Of a stretch of DNA of 60,276 nt, positions 5,476 to 60,276 are shown piece by piece. A program made the translations under genes and the position numbers. The stretch covers positions 1 to 60,276 of IMG/VR virus record IMGVR_UViG_3300009709_000005. The stretch is one strand, 5' to 3'. Source of the stretch: a virus. The notes below the pieces were generated by a model. It saw nothing but the letters and a program-made list of their open reading frames with translations, searched no databases and was not told the origin of the DNA. Within the stretch, counting starts at the first letter, position 1; each line of letters opens with the position of its first letter.

Positions 5476-7014
5476 TCAAGCGACGAACTGTCGGTACAGG
5501 TCCAGCAGCAGCGCTTGAAGCTGGGCCTTGTTTTGCAGCACCTTGAAGATCGCCCACTCGAACGGATGCGCGCCGATGTGGGTGATCGTGCATTCCTGTT
5601 TCTGGCCCTTGCGCAAGATGCGCGCGTTGGCCTGCTCGTAGTCCTCGATCGAGAAAATCGGGGCGTACCAGATGATGTTGCTGGCGGCCGTTAGCGTCAG
5701 GCCGTGGGCAGTTGTCTTCGGGTGCGCGATCAGCACCTTGGGACCGTTGGGGTCGTTCTGAAACTCGTGGAAGATCCGGCTGCGCTCAGTCTGGTTTACC
5801 GAACCGTTGACGATCACGCTGCTGTACTTGGTGTCGATCACCTGCTTGAGCCGCGCCATCACGAACAGGAACGGCACAAACACGATCACCTTGCCCGGGA
5901 TCTCCTCCAGCAATTCCATCAACACGTCGACGCGCGGCTTGTCGTTGAGGATCACCGGATCGCCCGAGTCGTCCTTGACGATGCCACAGCACACCTGCTG
6001 CAGCTTCACGACCTTGACCGCGGCGTTGGCGGCCGTGATGGTCACGGCGTCGTTCTCGTGCTTCATGGTCTTGCGCAGCTGCTCGAACGTGGCCAGCTGC
6101 TCTTTGGACAGCTCGCAGTACCGGTTGTTGTACGTCATCGGTGGCAGGTCCAGACAGTCGGCTTTCTTGAACCGCACCGCTGGCTGCATCGCCGCCCACA
6201 CCATATCCATCGCGCCCTCTTTGGCCACCCATTTGTAGGGGCCGGCCGGGCGCATCACGGTCTCCTGAAACAGCCGAAAGCTGCCCGGCACTGACGCAGG
6301 GTTGACCAGCCGGCACATGGCCCACGCATCGGTCGGCGCGTTCGGTACCGGCGTGCCCGTCATCATCCACAGCCGCGTCTCGGCTTTCAGCAGCGACTTC
6401 AGCGCCTTGTAGCGTTCGGTCGACGCGTTGCGGTACGTGGCTGCCTCATCGACGATGATCAGGTCGAACTTGTCTTTAAGCGCATCTTTCATGCCGGTGA
6501 GGCCGTCGAAATTGATCACGCAGATCGGATCATTCGCAGCCAGCACGTCGAGGCGCTTCGCACGCGTACCCATCATCATACCCACGGACAGGTGCGGCAC
6601 TGTGGTGAACCCTTCATCGACCCAGACCTTGGTCACGCTGACCGGGCAAATCACCAGCACGCGCCGAACGTAGCCGCGCTGCTTCAAATAATCGACAGCC
6701 CACAGCGCAGCAGAGGACTTTCCAGTTCCCATGTCCGACAGCACGAACGCGCGCTTGTTGAGCGTCAGAAACTCGGCCGTCTCGGTTTGATGGCTCATCG
6801 GCGTGTAGCGACCGGCGAACTTGAACCCGTCGTAGAGCATCGGGCTGGGCGCGTTGAGCCCAAGGTTGCGCAGCACGCACACTTCGTCCAGCAGGTGCTT
6901 CACCGCTGTGATGGTCTTGCCTTTGTACTGGAACGATTTGGAGCGCGGGATCACGTCCGTGATCAGCTCCGGTTTGTCGACCACCATCAGCAGATTGCCA
7001 TTACGAACTTGCAT
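5476..7014 (-). CDS. SNF2/Rad54-family helicase
   Basis: Motif I DMGTGKS, motif II IIVDEAA, C-terminal helicase block HGLTLTAAS. Start at 7014 (MQVRNG) is favoured over 7068. Confidence 0.85.
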   Translation of the reverse strand: MQVRNGNLLMVVDKPELITDVIPRSKSFQYKGKTITAVKHLLDEVCVLRNLGLNAPSPMLYDGFKFAGRYTPMSHQTETAEFLTLNKRAFVLSDMGTGKSSAALWAVDYLKQRGYVRRVLVICPVSVTKVWVDEGFTTVPHLSVGMMMGTRAKRLDVLAANDPICVINFDGLTGMKDALKDKFDLIIVDEAATYRNASTERYKALKSLLKAETRLWMMTGTPVPNAPTDAWAMCRLVNPASVPGSFRLFQETVMRPAGPYKWVAKEGAMDMVWAAMQPAVRFKKADCLDLPPMTYNNRYCELSKEQLATFEQLRKTMKHENDAVTITAANAAVKVVKLQQVCCGIVKDDSGDPVILNDKPRVDVLMELLEEIPGKVIVFVPFLFVMARLKQVIDTKYSSVIVNGSVNQTERSRIFHEFQNDPNGPKVLIAHPKTTAHGLTLTAASNIIWYAPIFSIEDYEQANARILRKGQKQECTITHIGAHPFEWAIFKVLQNKAQLQALLLDLYRQFVA

Positions 7015-7354
7015 TGAGGAGCGCCTTGATTCGGAGTGCCCGGGCTTCGAGCTTCTGGAAAAATGCATCGAGTCGATCGACGTTGGCCATGTTCACGACC
7101 ACAGCAAATCCACCCGCAGTGCGAATGTCTTTGATGCGCGCCGCCTGAAGATCCGACGGTTTTTTCTTTGTCCCGGCTTTCGCTTCGATGGCCCAAAACA
7201 AGCCATGGAGCGTGCCAATGTAGTCTGGCCAGCCGTTGGAGCCAAACATCGACCCCGCCGTTTTATTGTACGCCATCACACCGCGCTGGACGTAAGGCTT
7301 GAGGACTGCGTCGATCTTTTTCTTAACCTTGGCTTCGGGCGTTGTTGCGGCCAT
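7001..7354 (-). CDS. VRR-NUC domain nuclease
   Basis: PDYIG..FWAIEAKAGTKKKPSDLQ..GGFAVVV fits the D..ExK VRR-NUC core. GGAGA RBS before the ATG at 7354. Confidence 0.75.
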   Translation of the reverse strand: MAATTPEAKVKKKIDAVLKPYVQRGVMAYNKTAGSMFGSNGWPDYIGTLHGLFWAIEAKAGTKKKPSDLQAARIKDIRTAGGFAVVVNMANVDRLDAFFQKLEARALRIKALLNASS

Positions 7355-7538
7355 AGCCTTTCTCCGCGTAGGCCTTGTTCTTGCGCTCGCGTGGCTCGTG
7401 AACCTGTTCACGCATCAGACGTGCAAGCTGCTCTAGCGATACGCGGTATTCGTCTTGCCGGCACATCGGCGCCTTCATTACTTCGGCAACCCAATCGCGT
7501 AATTTATCGGCTAGCGAACCGGGGCGTGTCCTGCTCAT
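7323..7538 (-). CDS. hypothetical protein
   Basis: ATG at 7538 overlaps the upstream stop (ATGA). Confidence 0.4.
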   Translation of the reverse strand: MSRTRPGSLADKLRDWVAEVMKAPMCRQDEYRVSLEQLARLMREQVHEPRERKNKAYAEKGYGRNNARSQG

Positions 7539-7729
7539 GACTCCAGCTCCACCCACACCTGCTTGCCGTTGAACTCGCCCTTGTACTTGATGATGCCCTG
7601 CTCCACGAGCCGCGCCGCAGCCTGCCGTTTGGGCAGGCACAGCACGCAGCCTTTCTTGCCGATGTACTGGCCGTGAAGCGCGATCTCGCGCAGCACCGAC
7701 TCCTCAAAAAGATCCTTGACCAGCTGCAT
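7535..7729 (-). CDS. hypothetical protein
   Basis: ATG at 7729 overlaps the upstream stop (ATGA). Confidence 0.45.
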   Translation of the reverse strand: MQLVKDLFEESVLREIALHGQYIGKKGCVLCLPKRQAAARLVEQGIIKYKGEFNGKQVWVELES

Positions 7730-7992
7730 CACGCCACCTCTTTCACGTTGGCCAGCTCGGCCTTGAAAATGTTGGGGTAGACCGCGATGCTCTCCGGCGT
7801 CTCGTTGGTCAGCACCACGGTGGTCTGCAGTTGATACTTCTTGCCGGCCTTCGTCAACTGCCACAGCAGGCCGTACGAGCCGTCACCGTTTAGCCGTCTG
7901 GACGGCCCGGTCACGACGTAGCCTTGGGCCTCGGCCACCACGATCGCTTCGGTCACCAGCTGTTGAAATTTCGCGGAGTCGGCGGCGTTCAT
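7729..7992 (-). CDS. hypothetical protein
   Basis: 87-aa ORF; ATGA coupling at 7989-7992. Confidence 0.5.
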   Translation of the reverse strand: MNAADSAKFQQLVTEAIVVAEAQGYVVTGPSRRLNGDGSYGLLWQLTKAGKKYQLQTTVVLTNETPESIAVYPNIFKAELANVKEVA

Positions 7993-8336
7993 TTCTGCGA
8001 CTCCAATTTTAGGCCTAGCTTACGGGCTTGTGTTTTTAAGCGTTCAATTTGGTGTTTACGATCTCGCTCAGCTTGATCTTCGGCGCGTTTTCTACGTAAG
8101 CCAATGAGCGATTTTTGAGTGATGCCCAACAACTTGCATGCAGCTGCCCGCACTTCCTTGTTGGTGCCGTTGTATGGGCTCAGCAGGTCGAAATCGCGGT
8201 TGCCTACGTTGTACACCGCGCCGTCTTTGGTTTTGGCCAACGTGATTTGTCTGTTCACCCGAACAATTAAAGCGTCCGCATAATTGGTGTAAAGCGCCAA
8301 AGGCGGAAGGCGGTAGTTTTCGTTGTAGGCGTGCAT
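7989..8336 (-). CDS. hypothetical low-GC protein with C-terminal HTH-like / basic coiled segment
   Basis: 115-aa ORF directly downstream of the intein-bearing gene. Visibly AT-richer than its neighbours. KEVRAAACKLLGITQKSLIG resembles small HTH modules. Confidence 0.45.
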   Translation of the reverse strand: MHAYNENYRLPPLALYTNYADALIVRVNRQITLAKTKDGAVYNVGNRDFDLLSPYNGTNKEVRAAACKLLGITQKSLIGLRRKRAEDQAERDRKHQIERLKTQARKLGLKLESQK

Positions 8337-8338
8337 AA

Positions 8339-10036
8339 TTATTTCCGTTTTCCATTGTGAGGGCACGACAGGACAGGGCACCACGCTTTGCACAAGCCAG
8401 ACGGGTTGGCGGGCCACGTGTCGTGCTGCAGGCTCCATTCCATCTGGTCGACGATGTTGATGAAAGGCTCCCACATCTCCTCGAACGACGTGGTGATGTA
8501 CTTGCCGCGGTCGTCCTGCGTGTCGATGCGGTCGCCGTCGCGACGGATGTACAGCTTGCGCGTGAGGCGCTTGCGCGGGTCGGTCTCCGGCAGCCAGACG
8601 AACACCGTGCGCATTTTCTCCAGCTCGGCATAAGTGTGGAAGCACAGCAGCGTGGAGAGCGCCAGCTGGGCGGAGTTGGGTTTGGTCTTGCCGGTGTTGT
8701 GGGTCGGGATGAAATGCTCGGTGCACAGAAACGTCTCGTCGATTGAATCGACCTTGATGCACTGCGTCGGCACCGAATCGATCTTGGCCACCGACACCAC
8801 GCTGCGCCTCCACGAGCGATTCTTTTTTGGTGCGAACGATCTAAAGATGTCGCGCTTACGCCCAGCGAGAAACGGCTCGATGTCGATTGGGGTGAAACTG
8901 GTTCGGTATACCGTGGATGTCACACCATAACCAGTTTTACTAAACGACGCCCAGTTAGGGCGCTGCCCTAGCGAGTGCAGAAGCTCGTGCACACCACGCA
9001 CGACGATTTCACGCGTTGAATCGAGTACCACCGTACCTCGTGCGGTGTTAGCCGTGCCGTCACCGTCCATGATGCCCTGCAATAGCTCTAATCGCTGTTG
9101 ACGTGAAGCCCGAAGGTAGCGCATAGGAATATGCTTGTTACCCATCACGCCGAGGTTGGTGAGCGCGCTGCGTATGCCTAGCACACTATGTGTCCGACAG
9201 CTGCCGCGTGCCGAGGCGGAATCGTGCCCCAGCTCAAAACCACGCCGCTGAATTTCATCCCACACGCATTGATCTGGTTTGGTAATTTCCAAGCTAGTGT
9301 GCTTGCCATCGGCCAGCCAGATACCCAGCACGTATGGATCCAACGGAAGATCCTGTTTGGGTAAGCGTAGCGCTTTGGTCACCGGGATTAAATGGCGTGG
9401 GCGCAGCTCTGTCACAGGCAGCACAGATCCATCAGCCAGCGTCCACAAATGCTCAGCGTCGCAGCAAACTTTTGTTTTGTCGTCGAATGTGATCTCGTAG
9501 CAGTCAAGGTGTTTGACTTCGGATTTACCGACTACCCGGCATACGGCGCCGAGGCGAGTGAACAGCCGGTCGCCAACTCGTACCTCACCCATCGTGGTCC
9601 AGCCCTTTGGCGTCGGCAACGCGGTGTCGAGCGGCAAACCTTTCCAGTCGCCGTTGATCGCCTGCTTGTTGTCGCCGGACATGCACACCACGTCGATCTT
9701 GCCCCGCATGAAACCGTTGGCGTCCCAGAACCCCGCCGGCTCGAACGCTCTCGTCACAGCCACCGAAAGCTCCGCATGCAGCACCGTGTCCGGCTTGCGC
9801 TGCTCGAACAGATCCAGACCCCACTGGTAGATCGACATATTGCTCGGCAGCGGCCGACCATATTTCACTGCGTTTTCCAGCGCCTTGTGCACGGCGTTGC
9901 CCCACGCCATCTCCGGCGACTCGGCCTGCTGGACGTCCTTGGCCACGCGCAGGTGATAGAACTGCTTGGGGCACGTCTCGTAGGCCGACATGGAGCTGTG
10001 CGACGCAGGGGTCACGGAAAAAGGCTTGGCCATCAA
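8339..10036 (-). CDS. Cas4/RecB-like PD-(D/E)XK exonuclease interrupted by an intein
   Basis: The exteins carry YETCPKQFY, GKIDVV, DWK|TGK and the C-terminal cluster CKAWCPVLSC. Extein total is 250 aa. First ATG is at 10033 (TTG at 10036). Confidence 0.8.
   Translation of the reverse strand: MMAKPFSVTPASHSSMSAYETCPKQFYHLRVAKDVQQAESPEMAWGNAVHKALENAVKYGRPLPSNMSIYQWGLDLFEQRKPDTVLHAELSVAVTRAFEPAGFWDANGFMRGKIDVVCMSGDNKQAINGDWKGLPLDTALPTPKGWTTMGEVRVGDRLFTRLGAVCRVVGKSEVKHLDCYEITFDDKTKVCCDAEHLWTLADGSVLPVTELRPRHLIPVTKALRLPKQDLPLDPYVLGIWLADGKHTSLEITKPDQCVWDEIQRRGFELGHDSASARGSCRTHSVLGIRSALTNLGVMGNKHIPMRYLRASRQQRLELLQGIMDGDGTANTARGTVVLDSTREIVVRGVHELLHSLGQRPNWASFSKTGYGVTSTVYRTSFTPIDIEPFLAGRKRDIFRSFAPKKNRSWRRSVVSVAKIDSVPTQCIKVDSIDETFLCTEHFIPTHNTGKTKPNSAQLALSTLLCFHTYAELEKMRTVFVWLPETDPRKRLTRKLYIRRDGDRIDTQDDRGKYITTSFEEMWEPFINIVDQMEWSLQHDTWPANPSGLCKAWCPVLSCPHNGKRK
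8696..9640 (-). mobile_element. 315-aa intein with LAGLIDADG homing-endonuclease domain (class-3-like WCT signature)
   Basis: aa 133-447 of the ORF: GLPLDTALPTPKGWTTMGEV (block A), DAEHLW (block B), LGIWLADGK and LLQGIMDGDGT (LAGLIDADG x2), VPTQCIKVD..FIPTHN then Thr+1. Lower GC than the exteins. Confidence 0.85.
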
Positions 10037-10296
10037 TCAAGCCCTGTTTCCGGTAGAGCCGTGCGAAAAATGTTGGCCATGGCCTCAAAAGCTTTCGCCA
10101 TTTCCTCGCGGCGTTCAGGGGATTTAGGGATCCAAAAAGTAATGGCTGATCGGTCATCGTCAGCTGGTGGGTGGTGTAAGCGTTCGCTCGAGTGCAAAAT
10201 GATCTGCGCCGCTTGATAAACTATTCCGGTATTCGACTTTTTGCTTTCCATGCGGACTTCGCTGGTCAGCTCTTGGCTATAAACATTGATTCTCAT
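10033..10296 (-). CDS. hypothetical protein
   Basis: AAGGAA RBS before the ATG at 10296; lower-GC segment. Confidence 0.5.
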   Translation of the reverse strand: MRINVYSQELTSEVRMESKKSNTGIVYQAAQIILHSSERLHHPPADDDRSAITFWIPKSPERREEMAKAFEAMANIFRTALPETGLD

Positions 10297-10556
10297 CGTT
10301 TGTTCCTTGAGTCGTTGGTGCTGATCTGCTTGATGCTGGTGACTACTTCCTGCACGCCGGCCGCGGTGATGCCCTCGTAGAACGCCAGCGAGCGGATGTC
10401 GCTGCCGACGTAGAGCCGAGGCTCGTTGCGCCACACCTCCAAGTCCAGAAACGCGATCTTGCCGTACGTCAGCCCCGACTTGAAACTGTAGGCCGGTGCG
10501 AACTTGGCGCCCAATGCCGCGGCGATCTTTGCAGCTTTGTCACTTGCACTCGCCAT
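10293..10556 (-). CDS. hypothetical protein
   Basis: 87-aa ORF; ATGA coupling to the downstream gene. Confidence 0.5.
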   Translation of the reverse strand: MASASDKAAKIAAALGAKFAPAYSFKSGLTYGKIAFLDLEVWRNEPRLYVGSDIRSLAFYEGITAAGVQEVVTSIKQISTNDSRNKR

Positions 10557-12516
10557 AGGTGTATCCCTCTTTGGTCTCGCAGGCCACGGGCAGCTCCGGC
10601 ATCCACGTCGGCGCCTGCTGCATCACTCGATCGAACAACGCGCGCGCCCACGCCAGCCAGTCTGGTTCGTCGATGATAAGCGCCACCAGTTCATCGTGAA
10701 CCTGCAGCTCGACGCCCATCTCCGATCCTTCGTACGCGGTCGTCAACTCATGTTGAATCTCGACTAGCATACTCCGACAAACTATACCTGCAAGGTCTTG
10801 AACAAGATTCTCGAACGTCAACCCTCCATGCACGTACTTGGTCTTGCCGCGGTCATAATAGCTCCACTCTGTTTTCGTACCCTTCGTGACGCATTTCATC
10901 TGCGGGTATTTCAGCGACAAGCCGTTCGGCGTGCGGATCGACGGCTCACCGAAAATGCGGTCCAGCTCCGGCGTGGCGATGTTCTGCAGGTTGCTCTCGA
11001 CGCGCCCCTTGGCCGGGTCGATCATGCGGCGAAACTCCGGCACCACATGGCCGTCCATCAGGTTTCCGATCTGACGCAGCGACGCTTTCCAGCACTTGAC
11101 CACGTTGGGGAACGTCTTGCGGTACAGCTTCACGATGCGCTTGGCGAAGTCGAGGGTGATGATCAGCCCCTTCTCGCGGCACGTCTCGTAGAATCGTTTG
11201 GCGCCCATGCCGAAACACAGGCCCAGCACGGCGGTTTTGCTCAGCTGGCGTTCGTCCTTGTTGGCCTTGGTGATCTCGTGGCCGCAGATCATCGACCCAA
11301 ACCAGCAGTAAATGTCCTCGTTGTTGCGCAGCTTGTCGAGTGCGTCCATCTCGGGGCATCGTTCGGGGTCGCTCTCGAACCGGTTCAGCAGGTAGTAGTA
11401 CGCGCCCAGCTGCAGCGAGATCCGCGCCTCGATCTGGCTCAGGTCGGCTGCCATCATCTTGTAGCCCGGCGGCGCGCAGATCGCGCTGCGCACGGTAGAG
11501 CCCCGCCCGAGGTTCTGGGGGTTGCCGCCGCCGTGCTTGTCGCCACTCAGGCGCTGCGTGTGCGCGCCGGCGTACTTGATCGATACCGGCCATGCCCCGC
11601 CCAGCTCGGCGGACTCGTAGTAGGCCTGCGCCTTGATCTCCTCGTTGGTGGATTTGATTTCCAGCCGCGCGGCGACCAGTGCCTGCACGCGGATGTCTTC
11701 GTGGTCCAGCAGATCCTTCATCGCCTGATCGGTTTTGGCGAACGCGTAACCCTCTTTGGCGACGCCGGTTTTCTTTGACGGCTTGCCCATCTTGCGCGGC
11801 GGCTCGACACCCAGCTCCAGCAGCGCGGCGGCGAACTTGTCGGAGCTGTTGAGCACCGATCGATCCACCATGCCTACGCTCTCCAGCGCTGCGGCTTTCT
11901 TCTGCGCCAGCTCGTCGAGGTACGTGGCCAGCACCTCCTGATCGAGCATGAACTTTGGCTTCAGATAGACCCGCGTGCACCAGTCCAGCGCGTCAAGCTC
12001 CGTGCGCGACATGCCGGGCATCAGCAGCTTGAACAGGTTCCACGTCTTGTCGCAGTCATCTCGGCAATACTCGCCCAGCTGCTTCTCGATATGCGGTGGC
12101 AGATCGATCAGGCCATACGTCGCGCTCAGACCTTCGGGCTTGCCCGACCCCAGCAGCAGCTCGCCGAGCTCGTTCAGGCCGTGCCGCGCGCTGTTGGGGC
12201 CGATCTGCGCCCGCGCCAGCGCTAGCGTGTCGATGTAGCGCTTGGGGAAACAGCCGTAACGCCATGCAAGGATCGTCGCATCAAAGCCGAGGTTGTGGCC
12301 GATCATCGTGGTGTTGGACCAGTCGATGCGGCCGAACACCGTATCGAGATGCTTCCGCGGGATCCACTTTGTCGCGCCGCCGTTGATCTTGATGCCGCAG
12401 CCGTGCGCCTTGAAACGCTCGTCCATGATGTACTTCTGGTGGGTCATGCCCTTGTCGCGCAGGCTGTACCCCTTACCGAACCGCGTCTCGAAATCTAATA
12501 CCGCCAGATTGGTCAC
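10540..12516 (-). CDS. family A DNA polymerase with N-terminal 3'-5' exonuclease domain
   Basis: Exo I LAVLDFET, Exo II GHNLGFDA, pol motifs including QVHDELV. GTG start overlaps the upstream stop (GTGA). Confidence 0.85.
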   Translation of the reverse strand: MTNLAVLDFETRFGKGYSLRDKGMTHQKYIMDERFKAHGCGIKINGGATKWIPRKHLDTVFGRIDWSNTTMIGHNLGFDATILAWRYGCFPKRYIDTLALARAQIGPNSARHGLNELGELLLGSGKPEGLSATYGLIDLPPHIEKQLGEYCRDDCDKTWNLFKLLMPGMSRTELDALDWCTRVYLKPKFMLDQEVLATYLDELAQKKAAALESVGMVDRSVLNSSDKFAAALLELGVEPPRKMGKPSKKTGVAKEGYAFAKTDQAMKDLLDHEDIRVQALVAARLEIKSTNEEIKAQAYYESAELGGAWPVSIKYAGAHTQRLSGDKHGGGNPQNLGRGSTVRSAICAPPGYKMMAADLSQIEARISLQLGAYYYLLNRFESDPERCPEMDALDKLRNNEDIYCWFGSMICGHEITKANKDERQLSKTAVLGLCFGMGAKRFYETCREKGLIITLDFAKRIVKLYRKTFPNVVKCWKASLRQIGNLMDGHVVPEFRRMIDPAKGRVESNLQNIATPELDRIFGEPSIRTPNGLSLKYPQMKCVTKGTKTEWSYYDRGKTKYVHGGLTFENLVQDLAGIVCRSMLVEIQHELTTAYEGSEMGVELQVHDELVALIIDEPDWLAWARALFDRVMQQAPTWMPELPVACETKEGYTYGECK

Positions 12517-12758
12517 GCCTTGATGTCCTTCTGCTCGATGGCGAACTGCTGCTCGACGGCTGCGCGCGCATCTTTGGCTTCGCGGAACACGCCTAGATAT
12601 TTGCGATGCGTCGACCCACTGAACGATTGTTTGTCAGTGTTTCGGGTCACGGTCCCGCACGTGCCGCCATCGACGGCCACCAGCTGGATGACATTTTCAG
12701 CCGTCTGCACCCACTGCAGGCGATCGTCGTTGGCTAACCACGTGCGGGCCGTCATCAC
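12513..12758 (-). CDS. hypothetical protein
   Basis: 81-aa ORF coupled to the polymerase gene. Confidence 0.5.
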   Translation of the reverse strand: MMTARTWLANDDRLQWVQTAENVIQLVAVDGGTCGTVTRNTDKQSFSGSTHRKYLGVFREAKDARAAVEQQFAIEQKDIKA

Positions 12759-12874
12759 ATCATCCCTTTCTTCACTGGCATTTTCTTCGTGGCTTTCTTG
12801 AACGGCGCCGCCTTGGCACCTTTCACAAGCATGGCGTCCTTGGCCATGGTCTTTTTCGCGGCAGCTTTGGGCAT
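12755..12874 (-). CDS. possible 39-aa lysine/alanine-rich basic peptide
   Basis: MPKAAAKKTMAKDAMLVKGAKAAPFKKATKKMPVKKGMM. ATGA overlap with the downstream gene but no clear RBS. Confidence 0.25.
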   Translation of the reverse strand: MPKAAAKKTMAKDAMLVKGAKAAPFKKATKKMPVKKGMM

Positions 12875-12882
12875 CTTGGATT

Positions 12883-13455
12883 TCACGGTCGGTACTCCAT
12901 ATCGAGAATCTGCATGAGAGAGGCGTATTGAATTTGGTACTCCGCTTTCCACCCGTCGCCCCCGACCGGGTGATCGTCTTTGTGCGTGGCGGCCAGCATC
13001 GCCTGCTCGGCCACGATGCACGCCTTGTCGAAGAGCTGCGTGGTCTCGCTGCTGGCTCGATAGAACATGGCGCCCACCGCGCGGCTGTATGGCCCGGCGC
13101 TGCTGTCGGTGGCCTGCTCGCGCAGCTTGGCGCGCACTGCGGTGAGGTTCTGCTTGTGGCCCTTGGCCATGTCGCCGATCTTCATGAACGCGTCGGACAG
13201 ACCCTCACCCGAGTAGCGCTGCAGCGTAGCCACGATGAACATCCACAACTTGGCGTTCGCCTCGGCCTCGCAGTGCTGGAATACATGCCCCATCGCCCAC
13301 AGGGTGCCCGGCACCCCGCAGTGCTCCAGACACCACTGCGGCGTCATGTGGTCGGTGTCCTTGCGTCCGGTCTTCGCCAGCGCGGCGTAGCTGTCGATGC
13401 GGCCCTGCTCGCACACGCCGGCGTCGCATACGCGTTTGACGGTGGAGAGGATCAT
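12883..13455 (-). CDS. hypothetical protein
   Basis: ATG at 13455 overlaps the upstream stop (ATGA). Confidence 0.5.
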   Translation of the reverse strand: MILSTVKRVCDAGVCEQGRIDSYAALAKTGRKDTDHMTPQWCLEHCGVPGTLWAMGHVFQHCEAEANAKLWMFIVATLQRYSGEGLSDAFMKIGDMAKGHKQNLTAVRAKLREQATDSSAGPYSRAVGAMFYRASSETTQLFDKACIVAEQAMLAATHKDDHPVGGDGWKAEYQIQYASLMQILDMEYRP

Positions 13456-27604: not shown

Positions 27605-28270
27605 ATGAGCGCCCAACCCACACGGTTCAATGACAGTCTTGTCGTACGAGGCAAGCAGGCGGGACGTCACCGTATCGGGTCGCCGTACACACACCTCAAC
27701 AACGTAGGCATCGTGGCAGTGCTGGAACGGTTGTACCACGGCGCCAATCTGGTGGACGTGGCCAGCGAGCTCGATGTCAGCGTGACGGTACTGCGCCAGT
27801 GGCTCGATGCGGAGAAGCACTGGGACAAGGTCAACGACGCCACGACGCTCAGCGCCGAGGGCTACCTATCCAAAGGGCAGCAGCTGCTGGCCACCGCCAC
27901 CGACAAGTTCGAGCTGGACAAGGCCAAGGCGATGATCGAGCACGCGCGCTGGATGGCCGCGAAACTCGACAAAGCGATGTATGGCACGACCGAGAAGGCC
28001 GCCGCGGCAACCACCGTGAGCTACGTGTTCAACATGGGCGATGGCAGCGGCAGTGTGCAGGTACTCAGCCCAGCGCAGCCACGCGCCGCGGACGATGCGA
28101 AAGCCCCACCGATGGACATTCCCACGATCGACTTCGATCCGACGTTCGGCGGCGAGTTTGCCGCGCCGCAACTGGGTCGGTTCATCGAGCCACCGATCAA
28201 ACAGCCGTCTAAACGGCCAGATGAAAACGCGTTCGCACAGATGTGGTCGAGCACCGAGGACACCCTTTGA
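27605..28270 (+). CDS. terS: terminase small subunit (putative)
   Basis: 221-aa ORF immediately upstream of, and overlapping, the large terminase gene. Confidence 0.55.
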   Translation: MSAQPTRFNDSLVVRGKQAGRHRIGSPYTHLNNVGIVAVLERLYHGANLVDVASELDVSVTVLRQWLDAEKHWDKVNDATTLSAEGYLSKGQQLLATATDKFELDKAKAMIEHARWMAAKLDKAMYGTTEKAAAATTVSYVFNMGDGSGSVQVLSPAQPRAADDAKAPPMDIPTIDFDPTFGGEFAAPQLGRFIEPPIKQPSKRPDENAFAQMWSSTEDTL

Positions 28271-29760
28271 ACGCCCAGCCGACCGAGTCCAGCCACCCCA
28301 CATCGAAACTCAAAGACAAGGGCGGCGCGAGGATACTGCAGCGCAAATACAGCGCCAGCCCCACGCTGACCCGGCTGCACAAGAGTAGGAAATTCCTGAA
28401 GTACGTTGAGGGTCCGGTGGGCTCGGGCAAGTCGACCGGTTGCGTGCTCGAGATCCTGATGCGTGCGTTTCGGCAAGCGCCGGACGAGCATGGCGTGCGG
28501 AAATCGCGGTGGGCCATCATCCGTAACAGTTACCCCGAGCTGAAATCCACCACGATCAAGACGTGGGAAATGTGGGTGCCGACCGAGGTCGCGCCGGTGA
28601 TTTACGCCACGCCGATCCAGTGCAACTTCAAGCAGCAGCTGGGCGACGGCACGCGGATGGAGCTGGAGGTCATCTTCATCGCGCTGGATCGACCCGAGGA
28701 CGTGGCCAAGCTGCTGTCGCTGGAGCTCACCGGGGCGTACATCAACGAAGCGCGCGAGGCGGCGTGGGAGACGGTCGAGGCCTTGATGGGCCGCGTGAAC
28801 CGCTACCCGCAAATCCAAGAGGATGAGGAGGGCAACAAGGTGGGCGGCGCGACGGAGCCCGGCATCATCTGCGACTCCAACCCGCCCCACATCACGCACT
28901 GGCTGTGGACGAAATTCGAGACGGGCGACGTGCCCAACGGCTGGGAGAAATTCCAGCAGCCGGCCGCGGTCTACTGGTCCGAGCCCGATCATAAATGGAT
29001 GCTCAACCCCGATGCCGAGAATTTGCGCTTCCTGCCCGACGGCTATTATCAGGCGCAGCTCGATGCTGCCGAAGAGGTCTACATCCGGGTCATGCTCGCT
29101 GGCGAGCCGGGCGCGTCGAGGAAGGGGCGGCCGATCTTCACCGCCTTCAACATCGGCGTGCACGTGGCCAAGGAGCGCATCAACCCGGAGCGCCAGTTCC
29201 CGCTGATCATCGGGCTCGACTTCGGGCTCATGCCAGGCTGCGTGATTGGGCAGCTGACGCACCGCGGGATTCGGATCACCGATGAGGTGCCGGCGTCGGA
29301 TGAGTCGCTGGAAGAGTTCCTTGACGAGTACGCCATGCCGCTGCTGCGCGCGCGGTACCCCAACTACCCGATCATCGGTGTGGGCGATCCGGCGGGGCGC
29401 GGCCGGTCGGCGCTGGACAAGCGCACCAGCTTCGACGTGCTGGCCAGCCGCGGCATCAAGGCGTTCCCGGCCAGCACCAACAGCTTCCAGACGCGAAAGG
29501 AGACGGTCGATCATTACCTCAACCGAATTGGCGGCCTGACCATATCCCCACACTGCACCGTGTTGATCGAAGCGCTATCTACTGGCTACGTGTGGAAAGA
29601 GTCGCGAAACAACAAGGGTGGTTCGGTCGATATAGCCGACAAGAATGAGTTCTCCCATATCGCAGACGCGCTACAGTATATGTGCTTGTGGGCACGTTAC
29701 GGTTACCGCCCACAGCCAGTAAAGCACAACAAAGACATACCCAAGACCATGATGTGCTGA
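28243..29760 (+). CDS. terL: terminase large subunit
   Basis: Walker A GPVGSGKST, with ATPase then nuclease-sized halves. GTG at 28243 (alternative TTG at 28267 overlapping the terS stop). Confidence 0.8.
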   Translation: MVEHRGHPLNAQPTESSHPTSKLKDKGGARILQRKYSASPTLTRLHKSRKFLKYVEGPVGSGKSTGCVLEILMRAFRQAPDEHGVRKSRWAIIRNSYPELKSTTIKTWEMWVPTEVAPVIYATPIQCNFKQQLGDGTRMELEVIFIALDRPEDVAKLLSLELTGAYINEAREAAWETVEALMGRVNRYPQIQEDEEGNKVGGATEPGIICDSNPPHITHWLWTKFETGDVPNGWEKFQQPAAVYWSEPDHKWMLNPDAENLRFLPDGYYQAQLDAAEEVYIRVMLAGEPGASRKGRPIFTAFNIGVHVAKERINPERQFPLIIGLDFGLMPGCVIGQLTHRGIRITDEVPASDESLEEFLDEYAMPLLRARYPNYPIIGVGDPAGRGRSALDKRTSFDVLASRGIKAFPASTNSFQTRKETVDHYLNRIGGLTISPHCTVLIEALSTGYVWKESRNNKGGSVDIADKNEFSHIADALQYMCLWARYGYRPQPVKHNKDIPKTMMC

Positions 29761-44958: not shown

Positions 44959-46347
44959 GTGGCGTACAAAAATGCTTACGGCGCCGCTGGCACGCTCACC
45001 GCGTCTTTGCCAGCTTCGGGCACGGCCCAGAACATGCAGGTGGACACCACGCTAGCTGCGATCTTGCGGTCGTTTCTTGGCACAGGTGATTGGACGTACC
45101 TGCTCATCGGAGCGGGTACCACGGCCGAAGTGGTGCAAGTCCAGTACAGCGCAACGACTAGTTTCCCCGTCCTGCGTGCGCAGGACGGTACGACCCCGCG
45201 CCTGCACGCGCCCGGTGACCCTGCGGTGTTCCAAATCACAGCGGTAGCCATCGCTGCCGCAGTGCCGCCGCAGACGCTGACCGTCAACACATCAGGGGCT
45301 ATTACAGCCACGCAGCCAACCGCGACCGAGTTAGACCTTAGCGTGCCGCCACCGAACTTTACGGGCAACGGTATCGCGGTTTCGGGTGCCTACCCCAACT
45401 ACGAATTCACGTTGACGGAAGACGACACCGGGTGCTGTGGGTCGGGTACCAGCAGCGGTGGATCGACGTTGTCGCTGTACGGCAACGGTTTGGTGGAAAT
45501 CAGCCAGTCGGGATCGACAGCGACGATCACGGTGGAAGAGCCCGCGTTCACTGGCTCCGGTTTGTCGATCACAGGCACATGGCCTAACCTCAATTTCGCG
45601 GTCAATACCAGCGGCGCAGGCACAGTTACTTCGGTGACTGGTGGATCAGGCATCACGGTTACCGGGTCACCTTCGGTCAATCCTACGGTGTCGCTTTCGG
45701 CGTCAGGCGTTACTGCGGGTACGTATGGCGGTTTGCAGGTCGACGCATTTGGCCGTCTGATTGCCATCGATCCTACGTTCAACCCGCCGGACACGATTTC
45801 TGCTGTGAATTCATGGGTGCTTGTGGCGCGCACCGGCAACGACATGACCATCGACGTGGTCGAAGCCGCGGAAGGTACGATCGGTGTGGTGGCGCTGGCC
45901 AATGCCAGTGCGCCGCTCGACAGCACAGACCACAGCACGGCAGTCAATCCGGCGTTGCTGGCCAGCGTCATTTCAGCGCTGGCTGGTACGAGTGTCGCAG
46001 GTTTTACCACCAACGCAGGCGAAGCGACCAACCTCTATACCAACATCGTTTCCGCGTCGCCGACTTCTGTTGTGCTGGCCGCCGGCGAGCAGGCGCTCGT
46101 GCGCGCGACACTGACAATGCTCAATACGGCGACGCCAGCGACGCCGGTGCAGTTTGGTATGGCCATCTTCAACACGACCGGGCCGACGATCATTCAAGGC
46201 AACCGCAGTATCACGCAGTCGCAGCAAACGATCGATGTTTTGTTGACCGGACCATTGAATATTCAAATCGCATTGGCATCGACAGCTGTGCCTTCTGGCG
46301 CTACGGTTAACAGCTCGTCGCTCACTGTCACGACGTTCCCCGGCTGA
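44959..46347 (+). CDS. fibre-like protein with TG(N/S)G(I/L)x(V/I)(S/T)G repeats
   Basis: GGGAG RBS and GTG start; N-terminus paralogous to 44410..44943. Confidence 0.45.
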   Translation: MAYKNAYGAAGTLTASLPASGTAQNMQVDTTLAAILRSFLGTGDWTYLLIGAGTTAEVVQVQYSATTSFPVLRAQDGTTPRLHAPGDPAVFQITAVAIAAAVPPQTLTVNTSGAITATQPTATELDLSVPPPNFTGNGIAVSGAYPNYEFTLTEDDTGCCGSGTSSGGSTLSLYGNGLVEISQSGSTATITVEEPAFTGSGLSITGTWPNLNFAVNTSGAGTVTSVTGGSGITVTGSPSVNPTVSLSASGVTAGTYGGLQVDAFGRLIAIDPTFNPPDTISAVNSWVLVARTGNDMTIDVVEAAEGTIGVVALANASAPLDSTDHSTAVNPALLASVISALAGTSVAGFTTNAGEATNLYTNIVSASPTSVVLAAGEQALVRATLTMLNTATPATPVQFGMAIFNTTGPTIIQGNRSITQSQQTIDVLLTGPLNIQIALASTAVPSGATVNSSSLTVTTFPG

Positions 46348-48068
46348 TGGCTGGCATCCACATCACGCGGTTTGGTGGTATGCGCCCGATAGAAGACGCG
46401 CGACAGCTGCGCGCGAGCGAAGCGCAGGTTGCCCATAACTGCCTGCTTTCCGATGGGTCGTTGCGCTCCATACCGGCGTGGGTCACGCTGGCCACGGGAG
46501 TCAACAGTGTCATGCCCGGTCATGGGAACACGTTGTACACCCCGTGCCCGGGTTTCAGCGGGCTAGATTTTCTTGGGCCGCCGTTCGGGAAGCAGCAAGT
46601 TTTTGTTGATGGTGGCGGTAATCTCAACCCGAACCTCAGCGGGGTATCGGCCAGCGGAACGCTGACAGTTACGGCCAGTGGTCTATCCAAGAAAGCGGTC
46701 AACCGGGTGTATGGCGTGACCACCGTCTACAACTATGGCGGTGTCGAGCTTGAGTCAGCGATGTTCGTTTGCGCTGGATCCAACGCGATGGGTCTGATGT
46801 ACGAAGGTGATGCTGCTCGGGTCGTTATGTCGGGCACAGGCTCCAAGGTGCGGCTGTACCGGTCTACTTCGGATGTCACCTCGGGTGCGGGCGCCAACGG
46901 GGCTGTCACGGCGAACTGGCAGCTCGTAGCCGAAATCGAAGGGTCATCGGGAACGTACGTCGACGCCGGCGCGGCTGTAGCCAATCCATTCGATGCGTAT
47001 GTATACCGCGGCAGCCTCAAGCAACCTTTCACTGCGCACCGCATGGGGTTGCTGGAATCAGGCTGGGTATGGATGGTTAGTGATGCCGGCCAAGTGGCTC
47101 TGTCCGATCGGTTTTCGTGGGTATTCTGGCCGGTAGAAAACGTCTACAGTCTCGGGGACGACGGCGCCGGGGCGATCCTCGTCACGGGAGCGTGCAGCGT
47201 AGGCGATGTTCTGTACATCGGCACGACAGAACAAATTTTTGTGGGTACGGCGCGCGCGACGGACACCGGTGGCGTGGTCATGCAGCTGCTGCCGATACCC
47301 AGCGCCGAAGGATGTCTGCCAAACACCATGGTCGCTACGCCGACTGGAGCTGTGTATACCTCGATCAGTGGTGTGGTAGCGGTCAATGGGAACGAAGCTC
47401 GGCTCCTGACTAGGGACATCGCGCGCGGTTTGATCGACGTGCTGCCCGATGGCACTGAACTGACATTCTCGATGATGCGGACGGCGTTTTACCATCACGG
47501 TGCGTATTACGCGTTTGCCGAAGCGCAGCAGCTTATCGGCGGCACGCACCCCACGTACGGTTTTCGCTTCGTCGCTGCAGATGCGCTCAGCCCAGCCAAC
47601 GATGCGGGCACGCTGGTTTCCATGGAAGCTCCGGCTAATCAGTCTAACGCCGGTTACGGAACTAGCTACGTCAACAGCATCCGCGGGGCATGCGTCGTGT
47701 TTGGCGCCAGCAGCGGTGGCGGTGAGGCCAATGTCTATACCTTGCCGTTGCCGGAAGACGCGGGCCTTGCGACTTACGTGGCCGAGGCCAAGCAACGCTA
47801 CGTCTGGCGGTCCAAGAAGTTCGTGTTCACCGGCAACGTCGAGATGGGCGCAGCCAAGGTGGTGCATGACTGTGCGGGCAATGGCGTACGGTTGCGGCTC
47901 TATGTAGACTGCTGCTGTGTCTACGAGACCGTGGTGCGCGGGTGCGTGCCGTTTACTTTGCCAGACCAGCTGCGGGGCATCACATGGGAGATCGAGCTTC
48001 AAGGCTGCTCCCGCGTGACCGAGGTGCATCTGGCGCCAACCATCAGGGAGCTTACCGATCGTGAATAG
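46347..48068 (+). CDS. large virion structural protein (putative tail/nozzle component)
   Basis: 573 aa; TGATG junction; call based on position only. Confidence 0.35.
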   Translation: MAGIHITRFGGMRPIEDARQLRASEAQVAHNCLLSDGSLRSIPAWVTLATGVNSVMPGHGNTLYTPCPGFSGLDFLGPPFGKQQVFVDGGGNLNPNLSGVSASGTLTVTASGLSKKAVNRVYGVTTVYNYGGVELESAMFVCAGSNAMGLMYEGDAARVVMSGTGSKVRLYRSTSDVTSGAGANGAVTANWQLVAEIEGSSGTYVDAGAAVANPFDAYVYRGSLKQPFTAHRMGLLESGWVWMVSDAGQVALSDRFSWVFWPVENVYSLGDDGAGAILVTGACSVGDVLYIGTTEQIFVGTARATDTGGVVMQLLPIPSAEGCLPNTMVATPTGAVYTSISGVVAVNGNEARLLTRDIARGLIDVLPDGTELTFSMMRTAFYHHGAYYAFAEAQQLIGGTHPTYGFRFVAADALSPANDAGTLVSMEAPANQSNAGYGTSYVNSIRGACVVFGASSGGGEANVYTLPLPEDAGLATYVAEAKQRYVWRSKKFVFTGNVEMGAAKVVHDCAGNGVRLRLYVDCCCVYETVVRGCVPFTLPDQLRGITWEIELQGCSRVTEVHLAPTIRELTDRE

Positions 48069-51692: not shown

Positions 51693-51993
51693 TTCTGACC
51701 ACGGCAATTCACTGGTCGCCGAACTGCTGGGCTACGAGCAGGCCTACGAAGAGGCCAAGGACAAGGTCACCGCGGCTGACCCATTCATCAAATACTTCGA
51801 CGACAACAAGGAAATCACGCTGTCCGATGACGACGCGCATGACGCGCACTCGCTCTACATCGTGGCGCCGAACGACCCCATGGAGAGTTTCAGCTTGATC
51901 CCGCGCGTCGCGAAAAAGAACAAGCTCGGCAAGCTGTCGAAAGACGCGCTGCGCCGGATTCTGGGCAACCTCCTTGACTCGGTGAAAGTATGA
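51664..51993 (+). CDS. hypothetical acidic protein
   Basis: 109 aa; ATGA coupling to the giant gene. Confidence 0.35.
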   Translation: MRTLSTTQVDSDHGNSLVAELLGYEQAYEEAKDKVTAADPFIKYFDDNKEITLSDDDAHDAHSLYIVAPNDPMESFSLIPRVAKKNKLGKLSKDALRRILGNLLDSVKV

Positions 51994-54900
51994 GTGTCGT
52001 CGACCCCACCGCGATTCCGCCGCCCGTTCGCTACGCTGATCAGGGCAACGACGCGTACAGCCAGTACGTCAAGACAGGCCAGCTCCCCGCTGCTAATGCA
52101 GGTGGATCCATGGGTGTGCCGCCTGTCGTGGCTCCCGTGCAAGCGCCCGCTCCCGCGCCAGCACCGTCCGGCGGCGAGTTCGACGCGCTGGTCAAAGCCC
52201 ACGAAGCCACCAACGGTGGCAAGCCGCTCAGCGAGCAGCAGCTCGACAGCCTACGCGATTCGTACTGGGCGACGCAGGAGCCGGGCGTGTGGGCGAGCCA
52301 TAAGGGCATCACCAAAGGCGCTGTGCTGGCCGAGAAAGGTGCGTTCAACGCCGGGTACAACGACTACAAGGCCAAGTACCTCAAGACGCACGCGGACCCA
52401 GCGACGGTGGCCAAGGGCGGCGCGGGTGAAGCGCTGACCGATTTCGGTAAGGCGGCCGGCGGCACGTTGGCCAAAAGCGGTATCGAGCTGGGCCGTGACG
52501 TGGCTGGTGGTGTCGTTGGTCTCGGTGAGGGTATTGGCAATGCGTTCCAGCATTACGTGCTGGGCAACAAGGACTACGACGCGGCTACCGATCCGTCAAA
52601 CAGCGGCCTCAATACCGACCGTTTATTCAGTGGTATTGACAACGGTCTGGGTGCGCGCGCCGGTGAAGACGCGGTCGGCAAAATGGTGGCAGATGCCACA
52701 CAGCGCAGCCCCATCGCGGGTACGGCCGGCCAGATTGCGGGTGTAGTCGCTCCTGCGTTTATCCCCGGTGGTCAGGAAGTAGCCGGCGACGAGGCGGCTG
52801 GGTTTATCGCGTCGCACCTGCCCGGTGCCGTCAAGGCCGCTATTGGCCCAACGCTCAGCCAACAAGGCGACGCGCGCGACAAGGGCGCCAGTGTGGCCCA
52901 GCAGTATGGCGTAGCTGGTGTTGGTGCGCTGACTAACACGGCGATGGGTCTGGTACCGGGCGCGAAATCCGTGCTGGGCCGCGCCGCGGTCAACGCTCTC
53001 GTGGGCGGCGGTGTTGGGGCTGCGGGGCAGGAAGCGCAGCATCTCATCGCCCCCAATCAGGTCGACGCCCCGACGCTTCCCGATACGGGCAAGCAGGCGG
53101 GTGTGGCTGCTGTGCTCGGTGAGCTGGCCCACCGCGGTGGGAATATCCTCGCGCGAAAGAAACCGGCAGAAACCGTGGCACCCGCGGCAAACCCCGTCGA
53201 TGCAGCAGGCAACCCGGTCACGAACGCCGATGGCTCCCCGGTGCAAATCGCACCGGGCGTGGAGCTACCAGTCAACCCCAATGCCGCGCCCGTACCCCCC
53301 GACGCTATTCCGCCCGGCCCCGGCGTGCCGGACGATGTGCATGCTGTCGTGGTTAAGCGTGCCGAGAGCGAAGGCAATCTGGCCAAGCCCAAGAAGGGTG
53401 AGGTGCTGACGGCGCCGGAAGTAGTGGCGCGCGCCAAGATCCTCGCCAGCGAAGACGACACCGGCACCGTGCAGCCCCAATGGGTGCAGATGACTGCCGA
53501 GCAGCGCCAGACCGCGATTGAAGCGGCGGCGTCAGCCCTGAACAAGCACGCTAAGGTAGACGGCCTGCCTGAAGCACTGGCGGCTGATCGTGCCACAGCC
53601 CTTGCGCCTGCCCCGGCAGTGGCCGCGGAAGCTGACGCCGTGCCCGAGGGTGCCACCGTACCGACAGAGACCGGAGAAGTGCCGCAGGCGAATTCAGCCG
53701 CCGATCTGGCCAACTTCGGCAAGATGGGTAAAGGCATCGCCGACAGTTTCTACGACGGATTTTTCAACCGCTTGCAGGGCAAGGCCGGATCCACGTCGAC
53801 GTTTGATTCCGAGCCCCAGTTCGCCGCGGCTAAGGCGGCGATGGCGCGCGGTGAGATTTCCACACCTGAAGATCTAAAAGCGTTTCTCAACAAACCGGCG
53901 GCGCAAATCCCCGGCATGGAGGATGGCTCCGAAACCCCGCCTGCCGCGCAGGTAGGCAATGACGTGGCCGCGGCTGCACTGGCCGGTGAAGGTGCCAACG
54001 CCAGCCCGATTGACAACACCCCCAAGACGTCGGACGCGCGCACCGCGGCGCAGGCCCAGCAGAGTGGCACGATCGACGAAGTGCAGCAGCACGCCGACCT
54101 CGACGCCCAGCTCAAGGCGATGAAGAAAGGCCTGAAGCCGAAATTCACCAAGGCCACCATCGACAAGATGACGTTGGCCGACAAGCAGAAAGTGATTGCC
54201 GACGCACAGCCGAAACCCAAAGCCAATCCGCTGGCCAAGAAAGGCGCGCCCAGCGATGACGTGTTGGCGGCAACGCAGAAGGCCGATGCTCCGGGCATCA
54301 ACAAGATCAATGACAACGGGCAGCCGCGCCAGCCGGGCGAGCCGTTGTCCAGCAAGACGCCGATCGTGTCGACGAAAGATGTGCACCTCGCCGGTGGCGT
54401 GAGTCAGGACGGCAATACGATCTACATCGATCAGCGCATGCCGAAGTTCGTCGTGGTCGGCGGCAAGCGGATCAACGTGCACGAAGCCGTAGCGCTGCAC
54501 GAGCGCGTCGAATGGCCGCTGATGAAAGAGATGGGCGCAAAGTACCACGATGCACACGACGCCGCGACGGCCGCGGAGAACCATTTCATCCGTCAAAAGT
54601 ATGGCGTGGACCCCGAGCTCTACCAGAAGAAGCTGCAGGCAGCGATCAAGAAAGCCGGCATCGAGAACCGCCACCCCAGCGCCGACATCCCCGCCGATCT
54701 GGACACTCAGCCGAACGTTGACTTGGGCGATACCAAGCCGCTGGAGGGCAAGGTCAATCCGATTAGCAAACGGGGCTCCCCACCAAAAAAAGCGGAGGCT
54801 CCGGCGGACGCGCAACCGGCGGAGCCAGTAGCCTCAAGCGAAAGCCAGCCAAGCCTAAGTGACGCGGAAAAGCTGCTCGCCCAGCATCTGACGCCCAGCG

Positions 54901-60075: not shown

Positions 60076-60276
60076 GGGATTTTCCTTTAATGGAGGCGTC
60101 GATGGCAGTGTCTAGCTCTTCATTCCAAAGGCAGTAACTGTCGCTGTCGTTGAAACCGATGGTTATGTTTCGTTTGCCCGGACTACGGTTTACAAGATCA
60201 CGCAACCACCGATACCTCTCCGCATCCCGCTGATCCCCCGCCAAGGCTGACTCGATGACTTTGGCGGCGGCGCGGG
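60068..60276 (-). CDS. 3' part of the wrap-around Lar-like ORF (60154..60276 duplicates 1..123)
   Basis: The same reading frame as 1..331 continues ..ITIGFNDSDSYCLWNEELDTAIDASIKGKSHE then TAA at 60068-60070. Confidence 0.6.
   Translation of the reverse strand, partial: RAAAKVIESALAGDQRDAERYRWLRDLVNRSPGKRNITIGFNDSDSYCLWNEELDTAIDASIKGKSHE
60154..60276. repeat. terminal redundancy / circular-closure overlap, copy 2 (identical to 1..123)
   Basis: Exact 123-bp duplicate of the window start. Confidence 0.95.

Follow-up and report, generated by a model that had tools for sequence, protein, structure and literature searches.

The locus analysed here raises a question that is simply put: How does a phage come to encode a nuclease whose catalytic motif is interrupted by 315 additional amino acids (aa)? 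The gene lies on the minus strand of the virus genome IMGVR_UViG_3300009709_000005 of IMG/VR, analysed over its 60,276 nucleotides (hereafter the window, to which all coordinates refer). We consider it very likely that the intervening segment, nucleotides 8696-9640 on the minus strand, is a class 3 intein with a double-motif LAGLIDADG endonuclease, lodged between the motif III lysine and the Thr-Gly-Lys of a phage PD-(D/E)XK exonuclease. This answer builds upon what was observed in the present analysis: the anatomy of the insert, its homology, the conservation of its catalytic residues, the collinearity of its host with alleles that lack the intein, and features suggestive of lateral acquisition. 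The gene should accordingly be annotated as a PD-(D/E)XK exonuclease that contains an intein and whose predicted mature product has 249 aa.

Anatomy of the gene and its insert

The features of the gene, in the order in which they are translated, are as follows.

8339..10033, minus strand: precursor gene, a PD-(D/E)XK / four-Cys phage exonuclease with intein, 564 aa from ATG 10033
9641..10033, minus strand: N-extein, 131 aa from the ATG, with Lys as the -1 residue (re-read from DNA, alignment)
9971-9973, minus strand: Cys22 of the N-extein, in YETCPKQFY (re-read from DNA)
9692-9694, minus strand: motif II Asp (D115) of the N-extein, in GKIDVV (re-read from DNA)
9641-9649, minus strand: motif III D-W-K of the N-extein (re-read from DNA)
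8696..9640, minus strand: intein, 315 aa, in which a double-motif LAGLIDADG homing endonuclease domain divides a HINT splicing domain
9581..9640, minus strand: block A, GLPLDTALPTPKGWTTMGEV; residue 1 is Gly, hence without N-terminal nucleophile
9500..9502, minus strand: intein Cys47, counterpart of Msm DnaBi1 Cys48 (alignment)
9443..9460, minus strand: block B, DAEHLW, with His B:10 (H196) and Trp B:12 (W198)
9302..9328, minus strand: first LAGLIDADG motif, LGIWLADGK, with acidic residue D243
9053..9085, minus strand: second LAGLIDADG motif, LLQGIMDGDGT, with acidic residue D326
8747..8773, minus strand: block F, VPTQCIKVD; Cys F:4 is C426 (codon 8759-8761), the predicted initiating nucleophile
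8693..8713, minus strand: block G and residue +1, FIPTHN|T, with Thr G:5, His G:6, Asn G:7 and Thr+1
8342..8695, minus strand: C-extein, 118 aa, starting TGKTKPNSAQL (re-read from DNA, alignment)
8363-8392, minus strand: terminal three-Cys cluster of the C-extein, CKAWCPVLSC (re-read from DNA)
8339-8341, minus strand: stop codon of the precursor

A first-pass annotation, made from the letters of the window, had described an open reading frame (ORF) of 565 aa, which indeed exists at 8339..10036 (minus strand) when opened at TTG 10036 as in the ORF list. The true start is more likely ATG 10033 than TTG 10036, giving 564 aa: the ATG overlaps the upstream stop in TGATG, the 564-aa precursor is the recorded form (P0241), and the homologue P0004 starts MAKPP. 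Moving the start lowers all residue numbers by one; numbers such as C426 and W198 follow the 565-aa TTG start used in the first-pass annotation. In that numbering translation and indexing place the insert, aa 133-447, exactly at nucleotides 8696..9640 and return G133, W198, C426, T445, H446, N447 and T448 as had been read; every motif quoted at first was likewise found again in the DNA at the explicit coordinates listed above. The exception concerns the junction DNA, quoted as GATTGGAAG|ACCGGCAAG: this is wrong, since the sequence there reads GACTGGAAA|ACCGGCAAG. The computed masses are 63.7 kDa for the precursor, 35.2 kDa for the intein and 28.5 kDa for the spliced nuclease, refining the earlier figures of ~35 kDa and ~28 kDa for the last two.

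The insert carries the splicing blocks A, B, F and G in this order, ends with His-Asn followed by Thr+1, and maintains an unbroken reading frame through its 945 nt. Its AF2 model (pLDDT 96.1, pTM 0.93) matches PI-SceI in Foldseek searches (E about 1e-17, TMq 0.75-0.78) and resembles the PI-PfuI and TliVMA/PhoVMA inteins over the whole length, while for the HINT part two class 3 DnaB inteins match, 6BS8 (TMt 0.88-0.91) and 6RIX, the pair spanning TMt 0.84-0.91. Hedgehog and BIL domains are further matches, in keeping with a HINT fold. Both acidic residues of the endonuclease motifs are present within the PI-SceI-like fold, identifying a double-motif LAGLIDADG domain, and Pfam LAGLIDADG_3 scores 23.4-23.6 bits on the insert against a cut-off of 22.5.

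Could the insert be something other than an intein, namely a group I intron containing a homing endonuclease ORF, or a permanent domain insertion? The GenBank note on the homologous gene of Streptomyces phage Frankenweenie reads 'Cas4 exonuclease and intron', thus suggesting the former. In the window, however, the ORF is in frame and continuous through the insert, no Rfam family reaches the gathering threshold, group I and group II introns included, and the insert has a HINT fold with a His-Asn|Thr end. Group I and group II introns were rejected because of the continuous ORF and the empty Rfam search, and we give the whole alternative practically no chance of being right.

Class 3 features and their conservation

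Class 3 inteins, as defined after Tori et al. (2010), lack Cys, Ser or Thr at position 1 and carry the WCT triplet, consisting of Trp B:12, Cys F:4 and Thr G:5 (PMC2807308, PMC5222942); Ser or Thr at position +1 is typical of the class, not absolute. The insert has all these features: Gly1, W198, C426, T445, the terminal His-Asn and Thr448 (+1). Its best matches among PDB sequences (phmmer) are the class 3 DnaB inteins 6BS8, from Mycobacterium smegmatis (Msm DnaBi1, 2e-18), and 6RIX/6RIY, from M. chimaera (MchDnaB1), and the alignment to 6BS8 and 6RIX spans the N-terminal splicing half as well as the C-terminal one. In intein numbering, H64 and W66 are aligned with His65 and Trp67 of MchDnaB1, C294 with Cys118 of Msm DnaBi1 and Cys124 of MchDnaB1, T313 with Thr143 and N315 with Asn145 of MchDnaB1. 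These aligned His, Trp, Cys, Thr and Asn residues are the ones experimentally required in proven class 3 inteins (PMC2807308, PMC5222942, PMC6195587). With the catalytic residues of 6BS8 and 6RIX/6RIY in register and the triplet conserved in 121 of 121 sequences, the class 3 call of the first-pass annotation holds at the level of sequence.

This assignment needs to be qualified, for some observations weigh against it. The curated intein hidden Markov models (HMMs) remain silent: at E<=1 Pfam returns only LAGLIDADG_3, barely above its threshold, and a sub-threshold Hom_end, and NCBIfam finds no intein model on the protein at E<=0.01. Moreover, block B position 7 is Asp, where the usual residue is Thr or Ser; Msm DnaBi1, a proven class 3 intein, likewise has Asp at this position. 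We attribute the silence of the HMMs to the limited sensitivity of these models and not to a missing biochemical feature; as a consequence the intein call rests on class 3 homology and fold.

A second alternative accepts a functional intein that would splice by another route, with direct attack by Thr+1 (class 2-like) or some other initiator, leaving Cys F:4 a structural role. The absence of an N-terminal nucleophile is shared with class 2 inteins, and in the literature consulted we found no mechanistic test of an intein at this nuclease site. Yet class 2 (KlbA) inteins are without the WCT triplet and depend on direct attack by residue +1, which is Cys in the KlbA examples consulted, whereas here the triplet is complete and Thr occupies this position. 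All class 3 inteins that have been tested depend on Cys F:4, and in them Ser or Thr at +1 is unable to initiate (PMC2807308, PMC5222942); the Cys F:4 of the window is aligned with proven nucleophiles. We therefore hold this route to be highly improbable.

How strictly the catalytic residues are maintained was evaluated in 121 aligned sequences, the intein of the window plus its 120 closest homologues, which are 45-58% identical over the intein and mostly have a precomputed PF12705 match. The counts are the following.

Lys-1: 119 of 119 aligned sequences
Gly1: 119 of 119 aligned sequences, the window included
His B:10: 121 of 121
Trp B:12: 121 of 121
Cys F:4: 121 of 121
Thr G:5: 121 of 121
His G:6: 120 of 121
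Asn G:7: 121 of 121
Residue +1: Thr in 114 and Ser in 7 of 121
Acidic residue of the first LAGLIDADG motif: Asp in 120 and Glu in 1 of 121
Asp of the second LAGLIDADG motif: 121 of 121

Such conservation speaks for selection on splicing as well as on the endonuclease, and against a relic in decay. The latter possibility, a splicing-dead intein that has permanently inactivated the nuclease, has a precedent in class 3-like intein pseudogenes (PMC3196547) such as Arth_1007 of Arthrobacter FB24; one may add that the window protein forms a singleton cluster, with no intein more than 58% identical in the databases searched. However, the frame is intact over all 945 nt, the full catalytic set is present and near-invariant in the 120 homologues, both endonuclease Asp residues included, and the exteins are full length with nuclease motifs and four cysteines intact. 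Arth_1007 has WDT in place of WCT and a 66-aa extein, neither of which applies to the window, so a dead relic appears improbable.

Besides the catalytic Cys F:4, five further intein cysteines, C34, C47, C60, C148 and C306, are each kept in 111-120 of the 121 sequences, with C60 occupying block B position 6, adjoining the catalytic His and Trp; they may serve the structure, bind metal or act in redox chemistry.

The interrupted nuclease

The exteins provide an independent view of the same junction. On the unspliced protein, the Pfam PDDEXK_1 match is limited to aa 11-73; once the 315 aa are excised in silico, PDDEXK_1 (PF12705) matches end to end, from profile position 2 to 244 of 247 (E=1e-12). 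A search of 5.8 billion proteins retrieved 380 relatives of the spliced sequence, and none of the 15 closest (57-70% identity, 234-300 aa) carries the insert. When the spliced protein was aligned with 16 intein-free homologues (218-271 aa, 37-70% identity), the latter proved gap-free across the DxK|TGK junction, and C22, D115, D130, K132, T-G-K, Q142 and C234/C238/C243 were invariant in these 17 sequences. The first-pass annotation had staked its reading on collinearity of intein-less homologues at WK|TGK, and this is perfect.

What kind of nuclease is thereby interrupted? The sequence has the feature set of Cas4-type proteins, namely PD-(D/E)XK motifs together with four cysteines, one N-terminal and three C-terminal, as putative Fe-S ligands. 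In an AF2 model built from the spliced sequence (pLDDT 86.9), D130-x-K132 ends a beta-strand that is followed by a helix, and Foldseek gives weak matches (E about 3e-3) to the PD-(D/E)XK proteins MGME1, AddB and lambda exonuclease, without any Cas4 chain among the matches listed. Profile searches of the extein family against PDB sequences yielded nothing significant, the NCBIfam cas4 model TIGR00372 scores 16 bits, below its cut-off of 65, and Pfam assigns the spliced protein PF12705 and a borderline Exo5, not PF01930. As to an association with CRISPR, Tandem Repeats Finder revealed no repeat array of more than ~2 copies in the window, a spacer-interspersed array not having been specifically searched. 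The nuclease is assigned to PHROG 69, 'exonuclease', and its gene neighbours encode PolA, an SNF2 helicase and a DUF927 primase-helicase. On these sequence grounds the host protein is classified as a phage exonuclease of the RecB/AddB/Cas4 superfamily, not a strict Cas4; the 'Cas4-like' label given at first is consequently appropriate for the superfamily and fails for Cas4 proper, given the 16 vs 65 bits with TIGR00372.

Relationship to known inteins

We searched 50,697 phage genomes with the insert by tblastn and obtained matches in 837 phage records. The best is an insert in the same gene of Pseudomonas phage Rollin, with 50.5% identity over all 315 aa (E=5e-99); together with the number of matching records, this value excludes chance. 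Other matches occur in Streptomyces phage Frankenweenie and in the Mycobacterium phages Traft412, Zeeculate, Dexes and DiMaria (44%), the genes of these four mycobacteriophages being annotated 'Cas4 family/RecB-like exonuclease', and in many terminase large-subunit (TerL) inteins at 33-38%. One junction is common to Rollin, Traft412, Frankenweenie and ScoobyDoobyDoo, [DE]-x-K | [GA]-L-x-[LV]-x-T ... T-H-N | T, which in ScoobyDoobyDoo gp195 reads EFK|A...THN|T.

A class 3 intein at the motif III site of Cas4/RecB nucleases is already published for actinobacteriophages. The C1-cluster mycobacteriophage 'RecB' inteins, of which that of ScoobyDoobyDoo gp195 is an example, belong here, as does the Traft412/Frankenweenie type (Kelley et al. 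2016, PMC5050341; bioRxiv 10.1101/2025.01.02.630785), and a 2025 survey of actinobacteriophages counted 138 Cas4-exonuclease inteins among 287 class 3 inteins, inserted at motif III (EFK|T), with Frankenweenie representing one of two such Cas4-site lineages; descent from TerL inteins by extein switching was proposed (bioRxiv 10.1101/2025.01.02.630785). These inteins share with that of the window the host superfamily, the site after the motif III Lys, the WCT triplet, the His-Asn end, Thr+1 and the LAGLIDADG architecture. Full-length identity is 44% to Traft412 and Frankenweenie and 35% to ScoobyDoobyDoo; residue 1 is Gly in the window, Traft412 and Frankenweenie, and Ala in ScoobyDoobyDoo. Judging from these comparisons, the intein of the window is a divergent addition (<=58% identity) to a known group. 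Its carrier is an uncultivated phage of ~60 kb and 60% GC, whose replication module resembles that of Rhizobium and Pseudomonas phages, at a PolA identity of only ~30%, more than that of actinophages. Its novelty is modest and concerns this setting outside actinophages and the broad presence of the allele beyond them: surveys of class 3 inteins at the Cas4 site published so far cover only actinobacteriophages, and the window adds a data point outside that group.

Rollin (OR577172, WNV50632.1) shares with the window the D-x-K|G...THN|TGK junction and the PolA-nuclease neighbourhood, with an insert of 325 aa vs 315 aa; its exteins are distant, however, the N-extein being 29.5% identical and the C-extein not detected by tblastn. 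The Rollin gene (L001:2563-4290, 575 aa) is recorded as a 'hypothetical protein' but encodes a PD-(D/E)XK nuclease that contains an intein, its junction being DLK|G...THN|TGK, and needs the same re-annotation as the gene of the window. Other misleading records are the note 'Cas4 exonuclease and intron' on Frankenweenie gp79 and the name 'HNH endonuclease' for ScoobyDoobyDoo gp195.

The relatives with experimentally proven class 3 splicing, Msm DnaBi1 (6BS8) and M. chimaera DnaB1 (6RIX/6RIY), have a -1 Lys and +1 Ser/Thr context as in the window, and the former also shares Asp at block B:7. Unlike the intein of the window, they are endonuclease-free mini-inteins that begin with Ala and reside in the P-loop (GK|ST) of a cellular helicase. 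TerL class 3 inteins resemble the insert over its full length, LAGLIDADG domain included, and differ in host protein and in site, the ATPase P-loop. All PHROG matches of the insert are intein-bearing terminase families, while the TerL gene of the window itself (28243-29760) shows no similarity to the intein by tblastn against the window. Our finding fits published ideas of a phage origin of class 3 inteins and of their spread via K|T(S) motifs that are conserved in nucleotide-binding or active sites; it raises no new question and contradicts nothing known.

Lateral acquisition and distribution

In evolutionary terms, was the intein inherited with its nuclease or acquired from elsewhere? Lateral acquisition is supported, because the nearest exteins (57-70% identity) are all intein-free, because the nearest inteins (45-58%, mean 52%) are housed in exteins only about 30% identical, so that intein identity exceeds extein identity (52% vs 30%), and because GC at third codon positions (GC3) drops to 0.64 in the intein vs 0.86 in both exteins, a fall of 0.23 within the ORF. 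The replication genes of the window have GC3 values of 0.83-0.86. Total GC is 56.3% in the insert and 61-62% in the exteins, the 60-nt windows of the insert ranging over 40-68% with a mean of 56%; the first-pass annotation was thus right that the insert is lower in GC, and overestimated the difference by placing it at ~47%. Speaking against a compositional argument, several ORFs of the structural module have GC3 of 0.57-0.70, so the intein is not unique. Since other ORFs of the window are equally low in GC3, we have downgraded composition to weak, supporting evidence and dropped it as proof of foreign origin.

Candidate intein-less target sites were found in two contigs, L010 and L004. The former keeps a near-identical target, AACGGCGACTGGAAA|ACAGGCAAGACCAAGCC, matching 20 of 24 and 19 of 24 nt on the two sides of the junction. 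When the window was searched with the intein by tblastn, no second copy emerged.

Hosts that bear the intein, such as L008, fall within the same broad group, namely phages of ~60 kb that have a module of PolA, nuclease, SNF2 helicase and DUF927 primase. More than 100 metagenomic proteins have the [D]-x-K|G...THN|T/S allele, several of them on phage-sized contigs of ~58-64 kb, and a scan of one genome per prokaryotic species detected the allele in genomes or bins carrying the names Methylotenera, Xanthomonas, Alphaproteobacteria, Nocardioidaceae, Nonomuraea, Spirillospora and Clostridiaceae. Relatives of the intein that are more distant occupy P-loop sites.

This distribution bears upon another alternative, in which the splicing domain is live and the homing endonuclease dead, leaving the intein an immobile passenger fixed in its lineage. 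Endonuclease decay is common in inteins, some related terminase inteins have degraded domains (bioRxiv 10.1101/2025.01.02.630785), and the score of Pfam LAGLIDADG_3 is marginal. Against this, the acidic residues of both LAGLIDADG motifs are kept, the model of the domain is highly confident and shows a PI-SceI-like fold, and the patchy distribution in close relatives and foreign GC3 point to recent mobility. A dead endonuclease is a real possibility, to which we assign the lesser but not a negligible chance, and it would leave the identity of the element unchanged.

Proposed splicing and homing

For a class 3 intein with a live endonuclease, the established class 3 pathway (PMC2807308, PMC5222942) provides a template for splicing chemistry, and the endonuclease activity and homing that we infer from the sequence would complete the cycle. 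The 63.7-kDa precursor would be inactive as a nuclease until spliced, because the insert parts the strand of the catalytic Lys from the following helix. The thiol of C426, aided by His196 and Trp198, would attack the K132-G133 bond to produce a branched intermediate with a thioester at block F, from which the N-extein would be transferred to Thr+1. Cyclisation of Asn447 would then free the 35.2-kDa intein, and an O-to-N acyl shift would form the K-T peptide bond, yielding the 28.5-kDa nuclease with D-W-K-T-G-K restored. The endonuclease of the free intein may cut intein-less alleles near GACTGGAAA|ACCGGCAAG in co-infection, after which recombinational repair of the cut allele would copy the intein in.

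A regulatory twist is suggested by analogy with Msm DnaBi1, in which Cys48 is indispensable for splicing and, under oxidative stress, is reversibly linked by a disulfide to the catalytic Cys of block F (PMC6195587). Its counterpart Cys47 is present in 111 of the 121 aligned sequences. The intein could then be a redox-gated switch on the phage nuclease, with a DnaBi1-like Cys47 trap rendering maturation conditional, an idea that we regard as doubtful. Were it true, the nuclease would mature only in reducing conditions, and splicing of a phage replication/recombination enzyme would be conditional across phages of several bacterial phyla.

Phage genome context

The last 123 nt of the window (60154-60276) are identical to the first 123 (1-123). 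This points to an assembly that is circular or terminally redundant, and so to a phage genome that is complete at about 60.15 kb. A search of the window for tRNA genes and Rfam families found none. Megablast of positions 7000-13000 against the 50,697 phage records gave no match, hence the phage is without a close sequenced relative.

The small ORFs flanking the nuclease gene, 10033-10434 and 7989-8338 (both minus strand), have GC of 49-54% and GC3 of 0.49-0.54 vs 0.83-0.86 in the replication genes; they have no Pfam matches and may be separately acquired accessory genes. Elsewhere, an ORF of 2393 aa at 51990-59171 (plus strand) has no PHROG match and a sole Pfam match near its C-terminus, LPD38 (large polyvalent protein associated domain 38, E=7e-14); an internal-virion-protein-like gene (46347-48068) adjoins it.

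A further observation comes from the sister contig L004 (ENA ERZ27248651 k141_1009490), in which the nuclease (P0006) is intein-free and PolA has 967 aa vs 658 aa in the window. The PolA insert, at L004:7503-8435, falls at the equivalent of about aa 332 of the PolA encoded in the window (10540-12516, minus strand), where BLASTP splits the alignment at GGGN|PQNLGRG. The extra ~311 aa start with CLLPSCEVLTPTGW and end with ...VAVTFN, followed by CQNMGRG. From these residues (Cys1, Asn, Cys+1) the segment looks like a class 1-type intein with no recognisable endonuclease, and the ~310-aa insert has no Pfam or PDB sequence match. With this putative insert in the PolA of L004 and the nuclease insert in the window, related phages would carry inserts in different replication genes.

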